Virus record (IMG/VR): IMGVR_UViG_3300029873_000373
Length of the DNA stretch: 17,506 nt
Source: a virus
Lineage: Duplodnaviria; Heunggongvirae; Uroviricota; Caudoviricetes
Direction: 5' to 3' (one strand)
The translations under genes and the position numbers were made by a program. The notes below the pieces were generated by a model. The model saw only the letters and a list, made by a program, of their open reading frames with translations. It had not been told where the DNA came from and ran no database searches. Of this stretch, positions 6,786 through 10,300 are shown in pieces; position 1 is the stretch's first letter; every line of letters starts with the position of its first letter.

Positions 6786-6976
6786 GGACGCACCTCCGCC
6801 GTAGTTACGTATTTAACCGGGCTACCTTTCATTGAGATGGTTTCACACATCTCTGCCGCTTTCAGTTCCGCTGTTTTTCTGGATTTATAGCGACGGTGCC
6901 AGACAGATACATCCGTGCGAACTGATACATCGTTTCTGTATTCCGTAGTGGAGATGATGATTTCGTAACTAATCAT
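6782..6976 (-). CDS. Hypothetical small phage protein (64 aa)
   Basis: ATG 6976 preceded by AAGGAGGT; ATGA overlap with the Rha-like gene stop. Confidence 0.45.
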   Translation of the reverse strand: MISYEIIISTTEYRNDVSVRTDVSVWHRRYKSRKTAELKAAEMCETISMKGSPVKYVTTAEVRP

Positions 6977-7833
6977 GGGCGAACCTCCTTGTCAGAACCA
7001 TTCAGCCTGGAATCAACAAGTGCAGCGCCAAAAACAGCATCACCAACACGGTCGTACAGTTTGCTAGCCAGCGGAGATTCAACGGCCTTAAGCATTGGAT
7101 AAAGCTGGCTTGTCCAGATTTGATGGATTTCACGCAAATGCAGGTATACGCCTCTGGCGTTTCGTGCGACAGCTGACATATCAGACGCATCGGCACCTGA
7201 TAAACTCTTCTCCATCAGGTTAAAGGCGTTGATGTATGCCTCTTTGAACCGGGCAGCACGTTTACCAGTGAAGCCCATGGCAAGAAACGCAAAACCGTCG
7301 CGGGTGATTTGGTAACAAGGGAGCTTGCGTGTACCACCGTTCGGTTGATTTACCGAAATCGATGTCTCCGCAAAATTGCGGGCACAAAACTCAGGGGAAC
7401 AATCCAGAGTGCGGATCTTTTTCAGCACATCGTCATGACGCTTGGAGAAGAAGTTGGCAACAGCCAAAGAAGTGGTAACGGCCTGGCCGTTGTCAATGGT
7501 GATTTCAGGTTGAGTGAGGGCTGGGATCGTAGCCATGATGGCAGCCTCCGTTGACAGTGAAAAACTTCCACCACCGGAAACGCCAATTTCACTGGTGGTG
7601 AACTGGACGGGGTTGGCGTAACCGGCGTCAACGGAGACCGGCGCACCTTTCGGTGCCCCCGCCCAGCCCACCATAATCTGGATGTGAGCAAATGCGGACG
7701 ATAAAAAAGACGCTGGCGCGTCATACATCGCCGTTGACAATTTCAGGACGCCAATCCCGGCACCCGCTTTATAAGGTGCGGAGACAGTGTAACGTCCCGG
7801 AATTGCAGAATCAATATGCTGGTGGCGGATCAT
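6973..7833 (-). CDS. Rha-family phage regulatory protein with a ~99-aa N-terminal module of unknown function
   Basis: Rha-like core ITIDNGQAVTTSLAVANFFSKRHDDVLKKI ... TRDGFAFLAMGFTGKRAARFKEAYINAFN; ATG 7833 has SD GGGAGGTG. An in-frame internal ATG at 7536 with SD GGAGG lies exactly at the module/Rha junction. Confidence 0.7.
   Translation of the reverse strand: MIRHQHIDSAIPGRYTVSAPYKAGAGIGVLKLSTAMYDAPASFLSSAFAHIQIMVGWAGAPKGAPVSVDAGYANPVQFTTSEIGVSGGGSFSLSTEAAIMATIPALTQPEITIDNGQAVTTSLAVANFFSKRHDDVLKKIRTLDCSPEFCARNFAETSISVNQPNGGTRKLPCYQITRDGFAFLAMGFTGKRAARFKEAYINAFNLMEKSLSGADASDMSAVARNARGVYLHLREIHQIWTSQLYPMLKAVESPLASKLYDRVGDAVFGAALVDSRLNGSDKEVRP
7537..7833. repeat. Copy 1 of a ~300-bp duplicated coding module (N-terminal domain of the first Rha paralog)
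   Basis: Near-identical DNA to 8193-8492, e.g. shared CCCGCTTTATAAGGTGCGGAGACAGTGTAACGTCCCG and GACGATAAAAAAGACGCTGGCGCGTCATA. Confidence 0.85.
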
Positions 7834-8492
7834 AGGTGCACCTCCCGTTGATTACGACGGAACGCGGAGTGACCCTGGACGGTTTCAGCCTCATGGAATG
7901 CTTCAATACAGCTCTCGTAGTACCGCATTGTGCGCAGACTTAACCCAAGCTGAAGCATCATCAGACCATCAAGGGTGATGTAATAACCACGCAGGGAGTC
8001 ACCGTAGATGTGATAAGTACCCGGTATGAAATTGCGGGTAAAAAACCCGCGTGAGCAGTTCAGATACTCGATTTTGTCAACGATGTTCTGGTGCATGCGC
8101 TTGAAATGGCAGGCAACATGCAGGGAGAAAATAACGGCCTTGCCGTTGACGACTTCGATTTTTAGGAATGGGGAAGTTAGGACAGTAGCCATGATGGCAG
8201 CCTCCGTATGCAATGGATAACTTCCACCACCGGAGCTGCGAAACTCATGGGTGGTGAACTGAACAGGGTTCGCAGTACCGGCGCATACGGAAACCGGCGA
8301 GCCTTTCGGCTCCCCTGCCCAGCCCACCATAATTCTGGCGTGCGTGAGCGCGGACGATAAAAAAGACGCTGGCGCGTCATATATCGCCGTATGCAATTCC
8401 GGGCTGCGACCCCCGGCACCCGCTTTATAAGGTGCGGAGACAGTGTAACGTCCCGAAATTGCAGAATCAATATTTGGTCTTGAAATGATCAT
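7830..8492 (-). CDS. Rha-family regulatory protein paralog (divergent Rha domain) carrying the same N-terminal module
   Basis: N-terminal 100 aa about 75% identical to the adjacent gene; Rha-like IEVVNGKAVIFSLHVACHFKRMHQNIVDKI. ATG 8492 has no SD; internal ATG 8192 has GGAGG and may be the true start. Confidence 0.6.
   Translation of the reverse strand: MIISRPNIDSAISGRYTVSAPYKAGAGGRSPELHTAIYDAPASFLSSALTHARIMVGWAGEPKGSPVSVCAGTANPVQFTTHEFRSSGGGSYPLHTEAAIMATVLTSPFLKIEVVNGKAVIFSLHVACHFKRMHQNIVDKIEYLNCSRGFFTRNFIPGTYHIYGDSLRGYYITLDGLMMLQLGLSLRTMRYYESCIEAFHEAETVQGHSAFRRNQREVHL
8193..8492. repeat. Copy 2 of the ~300-bp duplicated coding module
   Basis: Same as above; differences are substitutions only, many at third codon positions of the minus-strand frame. 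Confidence 0.85.
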
Positions 8493-8576
8493 ATAGCTGC
8501 TGATATCTTTAGAACTGTTCTTGGATGTTTCGGAGCCGTTTTATGCGAAACAGCTCCCCGTTATTGATGTTGAGTG

Positions 8577-8601
8577 AGCCGGGTTACTCCCGGCTTTTTT
8601 T
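8577..8601 (+). terminator. Intrinsic-terminator-like hairpin plus T7 run, oriented for the plus strand, between minus-strand genes
   Basis: AGCCGGG-TTACT-CCCGGCT followed by TTTTTTT (8595-8601), abutting the stop of the 8601-9308 gene; on the minus strand the hairpin is preceded, not followed, by the A/U run. Confidence 0.5.
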
Positions 8602-9308
8602 CACCGCTGCCAACCAATAACCTGAAATAACCCCATTTTCGGGTGATACCAGCGAGTCCCTCGCGGTTCTGCTTCCTCCATAATCCGATAAAAAGCAGCC
8701 ATAAACGGTTCCACAGCAACAATTGCGCGACGTGACAACAATCCGTCCGGCGTCATGAACTCATGGGTGTCTGTAGGAATCTGATAGGCGTTCACCAGAT
8801 TGCGGCATTTATCATCTGACAAACCGGTTTTTGCTTTCAGTTGGCGATATCCGGCATAGCCCTCACGAATAGTGCCCTTTTTAATTTGCTCGACTGTTTC
8901 AGCAACGTGGCTGACTTTTTCTTCCACCTGAGTGATCCGTTTCTGTTGGCGAACGGCTTCAAGAGCCATCGCGGCAACCATTTCGATTTCGCTCATTGGC
9001 TTACGGATCTGTTCTTCCAGTTCGCGCCAGCGATCTACCAGGCGAGCTGTGAATTCAGGACAGAGCTGTGCGACGACAATGATGCTGTCGCGCTTACCTC
9101 GTTCACCTTCGAATACATACGCGCTAGAAAATCGGCGAGGCCCAAGTGATTGTTTATTCTCAATTTCCACAGTCTGTGGAAATTGGATGATTCCCTTTTT
9201 AGCCAGTGTTTCAATAGTTCTCTTAACACTATCTGGTCGGCTTCCCACCAGCTCTGCGATCTCAACGCTGGTCATGGATGCTTTGCCGTTAAAAATTGCG
9301 GTGTTCAT
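8601..9308 (-). CDS. Rha-family phage regulatory protein (antirepressor-like)
   Basis: 235 aa; N-terminal MTSVEIAELVGSRPDSVKRTIETLAKKGII fits the Rha-domain pattern; coiled-coil-like middle; SD AGGAGA before ATG 9308. Confidence 0.7.
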   Translation of the reverse strand: MNTAIFNGKASMTSVEIAELVGSRPDSVKRTIETLAKKGIIQFPQTVEIENKQSLGPRRFSSAYVFEGERGKRDSIIVVAQLCPEFTARLVDRWRELEEQIRKPMSEIEMVAAMALEAVRQQKRITQVEEKVSHVAETVEQIKKGTIREGYAGYRQLKAKTGLSDDKCRNLVNAYQIPTDTHEFMTPDGLLSRRAIVAVEPFMAAFYRIMEEAEPRGTRWYHPKMGLFQVIGWQR

Positions 9309-9549: not shown

Positions 9550-9622
9550 GATACTTTGTTATCCAACGATGTTAACCATAGGAACCCAAAGTATCAAGAA
9601 ATTCTGTTACTTTAGTATCAAC
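9550..9622. promoter_or_regulatory. Rightward-operator/promoter-like region (divergent PR/PRM analogue) with repeated operator motif
   Basis: Motif CAAAGTATCAA at 9587-9597, TTTAGTATCAAC at 9611-9622 and inverted GATACTTTG at 9550-9558. Candidate minus-strand promoter: -35 TTGATA (rc of 9592-9597), 17-bp spacer, -10 TAACAT (rc of 9569-9574). Confidence 0.5.
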
Positions 9623-9643
9623 AGCCATGAGAGGAGAAGAAAA

Positions 9644-10300
9644 ATGAAGTCTTTAGGTGAACGTCTCATCAACGCACGGCAAAAAGCTGGGTTAACACAA
9701 GATGCGTTGGCTAAAAAAGCTGGGGTCACCAGAGTTGCAATAAGTAAAGCCGAGCAAGGCCTTACAAAAAGTTTCAACGGTGACACCCTTTTTAAAGTTG
9801 CAGCTGCACTGCGGTGTTCACCGCAGTGGCTTCAGAACGGAGATGAAAAAGATAAGCATTGGGAAAATAATGTTAAGAGCTGCCCACAGAGAGACACAGC
9901 ACACTCTTACCCTGTAATTAACTGGGTTCAGGCAGGATTATTCGCAACTTCTGGTGATGACTACAACATGTATGATCAGGATAATTGGAGGCATTCTGTA
10001 AAATACGCTGGTGAGAGGGGGTTCTGGCTGGAAGTGCACGGAGACTCAATGACTTCGCCCGTAGGAATAACATTTCCTGAAGGAATGTCGATCCTTGTCA
10101 ACCCAGATAAAGAAGTTTTTTCAGGGTGTTACGTCATCGCCAGAAAAAAATCCACCAATGAAGCAACATTCAAAAAATATATTTCTGACATGGGAAAGGC
10201 GTTTCTAAAGCCCCTTAATCCACAATATCCAATCATAGAAATGGACAATGATTGCGAAATAGTAGGTGTTGTGGTTGATGCCAGATGGGATATTTTCTGA
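9644..10300 (+). CDS. cI: CI-like prophage repressor (XRE-family HTH plus LexA/S24 peptidase-like C-terminal domain)
   Basis: 218 aa; SD GAGGAGAAG before ATG 9644; HTH LINARQKAGLTQDALAKKAGVTRVAISKAEQG; S24 catalytic context GDSM ... ATFKKY; divergent from the early-right operon. Confidence 0.9.
   Translation: MKSLGERLINARQKAGLTQDALAKKAGVTRVAISKAEQGLTKSFNGDTLFKVAAALRCSPQWLQNGDEKDKHWENNVKSCPQRDTAHSYPVINWVQAGLFATSGDDYNMYDQDNWRHSVKYAGERGFWLEVHGDSMTSPVGITFPEGMSILVNPDKEVFSGCYVIARKKSTNEATFKKYISDMGKAFLKPLNPQYPIIEMDNDCEIVGVVVDARWDIF

Follow-up and report, generated by a model that had tools for sequence, protein, structure and literature searches.

Control of phage genes by small RNAs encoded in the leaders of those genes is known from P4, Gifsy-1 and P1. 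For P4, PMC10111431 describes the CI RNA as encoded within eta, a Bro-network gene, with a constitutive promoter that lies inside eta; only a promoter further upstream yields full-length Eta, in coupling with the gene before it, and translation of this form keeps transcription from terminating, while Kil is a truncated form translated on read-through. In Gifsy-1, a promoter is followed by the 77-nt IsrK RNA with its terminator, by orf45, by a processed RNA of ~80 nt (STnc1160) and by the gene for the antirepressor AnrP; the nucleotides of orf45 are conserved while its amino acids vary, its translation is required for AnrP, IsrK activates in trans, and in the Shigella dysenteriae version orf45 is fused to the gene to give a protein of 287 aa (PMC4825925). 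In P1, shut-off of icd and of the ant1/ant2 antirepressor requires the C4 RNA (PMC8198154). Here we describe a related locus in the virus record IMGVR_UViG_3300029873_000373 (Caudoviricetes), whose full 17,506-nt stretch is called the window below. A module of ~300 bp stands there twice in tandem, each time as the 5' part of a long open reading frame (ORF) that ends in a Rha-type gene. It is likely, with a probability of roughly 80%, that each module is an RNA-based immunity or translation-control cassette of the P4 CI, P1 C4 and Gifsy-1 IsrK type, placed before its Rha-type gene.

Both long ORFs lie on the minus strand. That of copy A (6973-7833; 286 aa) is eta-like, and an identical 286-aa protein is annotated as "Rha family phage regulatory protein"; that of copy B (7830-8492; 220 aa) has a homologue annotated as "ash family protein" by RefSeq and its Prokaryotic Genome Annotation Pipeline (PGAP). 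The first ~100 codons (~300 nt) of the two ORFs align and are homologous, with a similarity far above chance (nhmmer E about 1e-110). The initial annotation had described these segments as near-identical, as differing only by substitutions and as differing often at third codon positions, none of which survived a full alignment: the DNA identity is 245/309 (79%) and the protein identity 72%, one 3-nt indel also separates the modules, and the differences at codon positions 1, 2 and 3 number 24/16/24. With 29 amino-acid-changing codons against 12 synonymous ones, the two copies thus show no third-position signature of coding constraint. Perfectly kept blocks alternate instead with short, strongly diverged patches, a pattern that, without third-position bias, is unlike that of a protein-coding duplicate. 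The identical runs measure 44, 32, 23, 17, 17 and 16 nt. The block of 23 nt, ACGGAGGCTGCCATCATGGCTAC, does occur unchanged at both junctions (7551-7529 and 8207-8185), as had been noted; it is not the longest run, and the 44- and 32-nt runs lie inside the module.

The conserved blocks coincide with two RNAs, a promoter-like site and a terminator. Each module matches the Rfam families isrK and C4, in the same order, on the minus strand and at full length. The isrK/SeqA-like RNA (RF01394, model 1-77/77, gathering score 50) lies at 7703-7779 in copy A (62.2 bits) and at 8359-8435 in copy B (58.8 bits); the C4/P4 CI-type antisense RNA (RF01695, model 1-87/87, gathering score 45) lies at 7591-7678 (81.4 bits) and 8247-8334 (83.3 bits). 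The terminator scan placed a Rho-independent terminator at the end of each isrK match, the hairpin GACGCGCCAGCGTC followed by U6 (7722-7703 and 8378-8359, minus strand). A promoter-like site, TTGATT-17 nt-TACACT, was read from the sequence at 7786-7814 in copy A and, with the same caveats, at 8442-8470 in copy B, on the minus strand and within the long ORF. It falls 7 nt before the isrK match, in DNA that the two copies share unchanged and that close homologues keep well, and its position is analogous to those of PisrK in Gifsy-1 and PLE in P4; in copy A the transcript would begin near 7779, where the isrK match itself begins. From 5' to 3', each cassette reads as the promoter-like site, an IsrK-like RNA of ~77 nt that holds sites a1 and b1 and the terminator, a C4-like RNA of ~88 nt that holds the antisense segments b' and a', and then sites a2 and b2, the last running into GGAGG.

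The C4 fold consists of a long closing stem around two hairpins, with a minimum free energy of -52.2 kcal/mol in copy A and -46.2 kcal/mol in copy B. Among 48 homologues, both partners have changed in a compensatory way at 12 of the 28 consensus pairs, and each pair has only ~0-2 broken cells; the stem of hairpin 2 was excluded as structural evidence, since the DNA pattern used to collect homologues fixes that stem and its loop UCC. At the 5' edge of C4 lies an AUG in frame with the Rha gene (7674-7672 in copy A, 8330-8328 in copy B, minus strand), which corresponds to the first AUG of Gifsy-1 orf45, with the same ATTATGG context and the same frame.

Within each cassette the C4 RNA is complementary to sites on either side of it. 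In copy A (all minus strand), the C4 loop b' (UCUCCGUUGACG, 7637-7626) and the single-stranded a' (ACGCCAA, 7619-7613), both placed by the C4 fold, face two target mimics within the isrK part, a1 (UUGGCGU, 7754-7748) and b1 (UGUCAACGG, 7739-7731), and two downstream targets, a2 (7586-7580, complementary to a') and b2 together with the Shine-Dalgarno sequence (SD; UGUCAACGGAGG, 7556-7545, a 14-bp helix with b'). The corresponding minus-strand elements of copy B are b' (UUUCCGUAUGCG, 8293-8282) and a' (CUGCGAA, 8275-8269), again from the C4 fold, a1 (UCGCAG, 8409-8404) and b1 (UGCAUACGG, 8395-8387) within the isrK part, a2 (UUCGCAG, 8242-8236, complementary to a') and, from the helix scan, b2 plus SD (UGCAUACGGAGG, 8212-8201). 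In ungapped helix scans, b' pairs with b2/SD over 14 bp (G-U included) and with b1 over 9 bp, and a' pairs with the 7-nt sites a1 and a2. Site b2 abuts and includes GGAGG, 8 nt before the ATG that the initial annotation had called internal. The target sites of P1 c4 are likewise said, in work by Citron and Schuster from 1990, to flank the RNA, the downstream one lying over the ribosome-binding site.

The diverged patches between the copies are these pairing sites. Copy A has GUUGAC in b' and ACGCCAA in a', copy B has GUAUGC and CUGCGAA, and all four target sites change in step. Duplexes of short segments reflect this: the C4 RNA of copy A gives -18.9 (b2) and -10.8 (a2) kcal/mol with its own sites and -10.3 and -2.5 kcal/mol with those of copy B, and the C4 RNA of copy B gives -16.7 and -10.5 against -8.5 and -4.2 kcal/mol, so that cognate short duplexes are the more stable by 6-8 kcal/mol. 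(RNAduplex runs of whole C4 against whole leaders were uninformative, as they unfold C4, and were replaced by helix scans and short-segment duplexes.) Because the tandem cassettes carry different a and b alleles, each C4 RNA should control only its own gene.

The same rule holds among homologues. A scan of viral contigs with a DNA pattern, independent of gene calling, followed by a profile built from the two leaders, yielded 77 distinct leaders, and alleles were surveyed in the 69 of them with a readable loop. Among these are 18 alleles of b and 11 of a, which form 33 combinations. In every case the a and b targets correspond to the RNA of the same leader, and b2 adjoins the SD. For a1 and b1 the statement rests on positional matches: a longest-helix metric over the ~140-nt region with G-U allowed was set aside as too noisy, 53-77% of non-cognate pairs reaching the cognate minimum. 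At nine loci two or three cassettes stand in tandem, and co-resident copies always differ in their alleles. One viral contig (L027, 9638-11266) has three, each with a different a/b pair. At another (L060:3125-3800) a hybrid ORF is found: the first Rha gene ends after ~20 codons, and the frame then continues through a second leader to a Rha gene of 121 aa, as though tandem cassettes had recombined.

What follows each leader starts at the SD-ATG. The spacer proposed for it, GGAGG-N7-ATG, was right in its elements and off by one in its length: SD and ATG are present at both junctions (ATGs at 7536-7534 and 8192-8190) and are separated by 8 nt. Nor does this ATG encode the first residue of the Rha domain, as had been suggested, for the Pfam Rha domain begins ~20 residues further on. 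From the SD-ATG, copy A encodes a 187-aa Rha-family protein in the kil/anrP position (6973-7536, minus strand; Pfam PF09669 and E. coli annotation) and copy B a divergent, short Rha-like protein of 120 aa (7830-8192, minus strand; sub-cutoff Pfam Rha match and E. coli annotation). The description of both as divergent Rha domains holds fully for copy A, where PF09669 (Phage_pRha) matches over its full-length profile at residues 120-209 of the long ORF with 95.1 bits (cutoff 29.9); in copy B the Pfam Rha score of 26.4 bits is below that cutoff, and TIGR02681 (32.6 bits) is below its own of 45.95. The genes are Bro-network and antirepressor-like, and belong to the early-right operon of an E. coli lambdoid prophage. 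Inside the short ORF of copy B, the terminator scan also gave a hairpin followed by ATTTTCT (8133-8147, minus strand), which may be a chance match.

The suggestion that each gene yields a long fusion and a short product gains from the homology of the SD-ATG to the P4 kil start and from the eta/kil precedent for nested ORFs (PMC10111431). Judged by that homology, the "internal" SD-ATG is a real start site, and some annotations of identical E. coli sequences use it. The exact long proteins and the exact short ones (187 and 120 aa) are all annotated in public E. coli sequences, under differing names: identical or near-identical proteins are called "peptidase", "antirepressor from phage", "ash family protein" or "Rha family transcriptional regulator", and related Ash modules also "host cell division inhibitor Icd-like protein". 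The spread of 120-321 aa among the proteins clustering with the two ORFs arises because annotators chose different start codons.

The idea that the module is a shuffled cassette was borne out, because at least six different proteins are found behind this leader. A search with the module alone (103 aa) returned only proteins of <=181 aa, a setting in which Ash-Rha fusions are not detectable; it gave "ash family" proteins of ~180 aa whose C-terminal part is either an Icd-like inhibitor of cell division (NF033153) or another short domain, joined to the Ash module at the nearly invariant motif EAAIMAT. It was because of these Icd-like partners, icd following the c4 antisense RNA in phage P1, that the module was searched for RNAs. 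The conserved cassette reaches 8-10 codons past the ATG (7506-7536, 8162-8192 and homologues; MAT[VIT]P[TA]L...), whether a Rha, an Icd-like, a 77-aa or an 81-aa protein follows or, in contig L052, an unassigned one of 253 aa. Since the conserved codons extend past the ATG, the shuffling joint lies just inside the coding sequence and not at the ATG itself.

The module had been reported as assignable to no family, yet each copy matches Pfam PF10554 (Phage_ASH) as well as Rfam isrK and C4. Both long ORFs exceed the Phage_ASH cutoff of 26, with 73.5 and 62.7 bits (E 1e-15 to 1e-20), and RefSeq gives homologues the names "ash family protein" and "Rha family phage regulatory protein". Ash might accordingly be a genuine N-terminal protein domain of Bro-network regulators that overlaps RNA genes, with functional fusions of 286 and 220 aa and with conservation partly at the protein level. 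This alternative draws on the curated Pfam family, on PHROG families that span the full Ash plus Rha architecture, on the strong depletion of stops in this frame and an ORF that stays open for 100 codons or more in 66/77 leaders, on PGAP annotation of the long forms and on the long form in P4, Eta, which is reported as translated (PMC10111431). We consider it unlikely. Codon-position diversity in the leader is flat, at 0.32/0.34/0.33 for positions 1/2/3 among the 77 leaders, 0.19/0.17/0.18 among close relatives and 0.36/0.37/0.33 among distant ones, while genes downstream of the ATG give 0.06/0.05/0.18, 0.18/0.16/0.37 and 0.23/0.26/0.46, a third-position excess of 2-3.5-fold that begins at the SD-ATG. 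The protein domain under coding constraint that had earlier been inferred is thus not supported. The variable patches are exactly the RNA pairing sites, where the amino acids change radically; the first ~18 codons of the long ORF overlie promoter-like DNA, upstream of the putative transcription start; the N-termini of the cluster members vary, between 286 and 321 aa; 10 of the 77 leaders are in another frame than the gene; and in Gifsy-1 a stop lies two codons upstream of the orf45 AUG. Structure prediction, proposed together with profile searches as a check of the module, gave no confident fold: AlphaFold2, run on a shallow, heterogeneous alignment of 15 sequences that left the Rha part only moderately confident, gave a pLDDT (predicted local distance difference test) score <50 for residues 1-106, throughout the module, and a recognisable helical/sheet domain afterwards. 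The low pLDDT is supportive but weak evidence against a folded domain. Phage_ASH is a family whose cutoff score both long ORFs reach, but whose matched segment behaves as RNA and regulatory DNA.

The leader frame is nevertheless kept open. Over the 47 codons from the orf45-equivalent AUG, which all 77 leaders retain, to the Rha ATG, 0 stop-codon cells were observed against 62 expected, and over 53 codons further upstream 15 against 65; the other two frames have stop counts close to expectation. The long ORF is open for at least 100 codons in 66/77 leaders, and in 67/77 the leader frame runs on without a shift into the downstream gene. The first ATG of the long ORF adjoins the stop of an upstream ORF in 42/74 leaders, copy A included. 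The search for stops and frameshifts in homologues, named earlier as a test of the module, thus had a divided outcome: stops are avoided, yet the frame is out of phase with the gene in 10/77. Since stops are avoided and the frame is kept, yet the substitution pattern is flat, the leader is probably translated only for the act of translation, and the peptide appears, on the sequence evidence, not to matter.

Two further observations bear on this subject. In nine leaders (L011, L083, L007, L061, L088, L033, L080, L023 and L109) the leader and the gene at the SD-ATG, which is Icd-like and 64-81 aa long, are in different phases owing to a 1-nt difference; even so, no stop closes the leader frame for 364-1111 nt beyond the ATG. 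That frame crosses the short gene in another phase than the gene's own and, in L011 and L007, enters the next gene, which by eye looks integrase-like. Such frames suggest selection for uninterrupted ribosome transit or, alternatively, an overlapping gene. In P0026, annotated "ash family protein", ~35 residues diverge (ASFYRPHLLTSRLWWAGRGHRKVRRCS) before the family sequence resumes, a pattern that fits a compensated frameshift across the C4 region and a peptide not under selection.

That only the short Rha proteins are made, the long ORFs being annotation artefacts of a stop-free structured leader whose translation has no role, is very unlikely: short forms are annotated for identical sequences, GGAGG-N8-ATG is strong, the upstream ATG of copy B has no SD and the leader lacks protein-like evolution, but the depletion of stops is specific to one frame, 42/74 leaders have the coupling geometry (in copy A with ATGA and GGGAGGTG), orf45 is experimentally translated and required for anrP in Gifsy-1 (PMC4825925), and Eta translation has a reported role in P4 (PMC10111431). 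An early version of this idea, in which the long ORF was purely an artefact, was dropped after the stop-codon test and in view of the P4 eta precedent.

If the module is an RNA-based cassette, it could, by analogy with the described systems, work as follows. The C4-like RNA from the leader would pair with a2 and b2, occlude the SD and keep the Rha protein off; the same pairing may also cause premature termination. The decoy sites a1 and b1 of the IsrK-like RNA would titrate C4 or remodel the leader and so turn translation on. The long ORF would be kept open so that ribosomes arriving from upstream could run across the leader, unfold it and so escape the RNA control, in the way reported for P4 Eta; in copy A they could enter through the ATGA overlap with copy B, and the peptide encoded by the leader would be incidental.

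Several points weigh against this account. The RNAs, their processing and the start sites used at this locus are all inferred, and the promoter-like site, which agrees with the consensus at 8/12 bases, is below the promoter-scan threshold, hence also inferred. The invariance of the hairpin-2 stem and of its loop UCC is not evidence, given how the homologues were collected. Avoidance of stop codons also fits a functional N-terminal extension. The relatives on which the analogy draws differ among themselves in mechanism, P1 C4 blocking translation, P4 CI terminating and Gifsy-1 IsrK activating. Because the orf45-equivalent here continues in frame into the Rha gene, the coupling mechanism cannot equal that of Gifsy-1. 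A role in ribosome transit is doubtful for copy B, because its long ORF has no SD and no upstream coupling.

The window corresponds to the immunity and early-right part of a lambdoid prophage of E. coli, and the cassettes lie within it. A CI-like repressor is encoded at 9569-10300 (plus strand), and the window also holds a Cro-like gene and genes for replication, among them those of a DnaC-like loader and a DnaB helicase. Directly upstream of the cassettes, in the cII position, is a third Rha-like/helix-turn-helix gene (8601-9308, minus strand; 235 aa), so that three Rha-type genes stand in a row; its product has a Pfam Rha score of 25.6 bits (below cutoff) and also matches HTH_Crp_2, and its PGAP homologue is named "Rha family transcriptional regulator". 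In the 108-nt gap between this gene and cassette B, the plus strand has at 8576-8596 a strong hairpin that resembles a terminator and is followed by a T-run (GAGCCGGGTTACTCCCGGCTT TTTTT); it is oriented opposite to all neighbouring genes and might stop antisense transcription. The region matches 1425/5426 complete E. coli genomes, 74 of them over >=80% of its length.

The tandem arrangement invites a further proposal, which we put forward tentatively and hold to be doubtful: the two mutually orthogonal cassettes may form a translational relay, a two-key, ordered switch for antirepressor-like proteins in Shiga toxin (Stx)-type and lambdoid prophages. Once the Rha gene of copy B is de-repressed, ribosomes finishing it could re-initiate at the overlapping ATGA and translate the long ORF of copy A across its promoter-like site, IsrK terminator and C4 RNA, overriding the RNA immunity of that copy. 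If so, the widely used "Ash" protein family, and with it a marker of P4-like satellites, would be an RNA gene that is translated, the sequence of its peptide having no specific function.

For annotation, the consequences reach beyond this locus. Ash is still listed as a domain of unknown function in Stx phages (PMC8951638), ash is used as a core protein marker for P4-like satellites, and "Ash pseudogenes" are frequent in these (PMC13586616); in our analysis what is called an "Ash family protein" behaves as an IsrK/SeqA plus C4/CI RNA cassette. Because the region is so common among complete E. coli genomes, many Rha, Icd and antirepressor genes have probably been given wrong starts and wrong products. 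The combinatorial a and b alleles and the orthogonal tandem copies also amount to ready-made, natural and mutually insulated antisense switches, and suggest how co-resident prophages and satellites avoid cross-immunity.

Among the known systems, the P4 immunity region (PLE, seqA, CI RNA/seqB, seqC, eta/kil) contains the same two Rfam RNAs in the same order, C4 matching the CI RNA with 74.9 bits and isrK matching at the experimentally defined seqA. As in the window, where the promoter is a candidate, a long ORF contains the promoter and both RNAs, and a short ORF with an SD-ATG lies downstream of the antisense RNA; eta ends ...EAAIMATTLTPSHPEF..., with the same EAAIMAT junction, at whose Met the 65-aa Kil starts. 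The historic P4 "cI protein" ORF is a Phage_ASH match lying over the CI RNA: in RefSeq NC_001609 (L124), a coding sequence from the 1980s at 8168-8584, "cI gene product (AA 1-137)", is now labelled "transcriptional repressor", with the CI RNA, the immunity factor, inside it and with eta, kil and the RNAs unannotated. The geometry for P4-like coupling to the upstream gene is present in copy A, whose long-ORF ATG overlaps the stop of copy B (ATGA) with GGGAGGTG just upstream; the ATG of copy B has no SD and stands 108 nt downstream of the preceding gene.

Gifsy-1 resembles the window in that STnc1160 occupies the place of C4 and an SD introduces an antirepressor-type gene. It differs in that orf45 ends at the start codon of anrP (AUGA), out of frame with it, where the window is fused in frame, and in that its cassette is a single copy next to antQ. 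AnrP was considered as a homologue of the Rha proteins of the window and rejected, as it is an ORF6N-domain protein with no detectable similarity to them. The immI operon of P1 and P7 shares the C4 RNA family, whose Rfam model is named after the phage's c4, the control of an antirepressor and a specificity set by the antisense sequences, and many homologous leaders precede Icd-like genes as c4 precedes icd in P1; in the window there is no icd gene, the leader being joined directly to the Rha gene, and the two Ant products of P1 start within ant and not upstream of the RNA. Compared with P4, the protein downstream is a Rha-family regulator and not the 65-aa Kil/Icd-like killer, and the setting is the early operon of a lambdoid prophage and not a satellite, with two tandem cassettes of different specificities. 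The mechanism class is already established in P1, P4 and Gifsy-1; in the window the cassette comes joined to Rha-type proteins and in two copies of orthogonal specificity.

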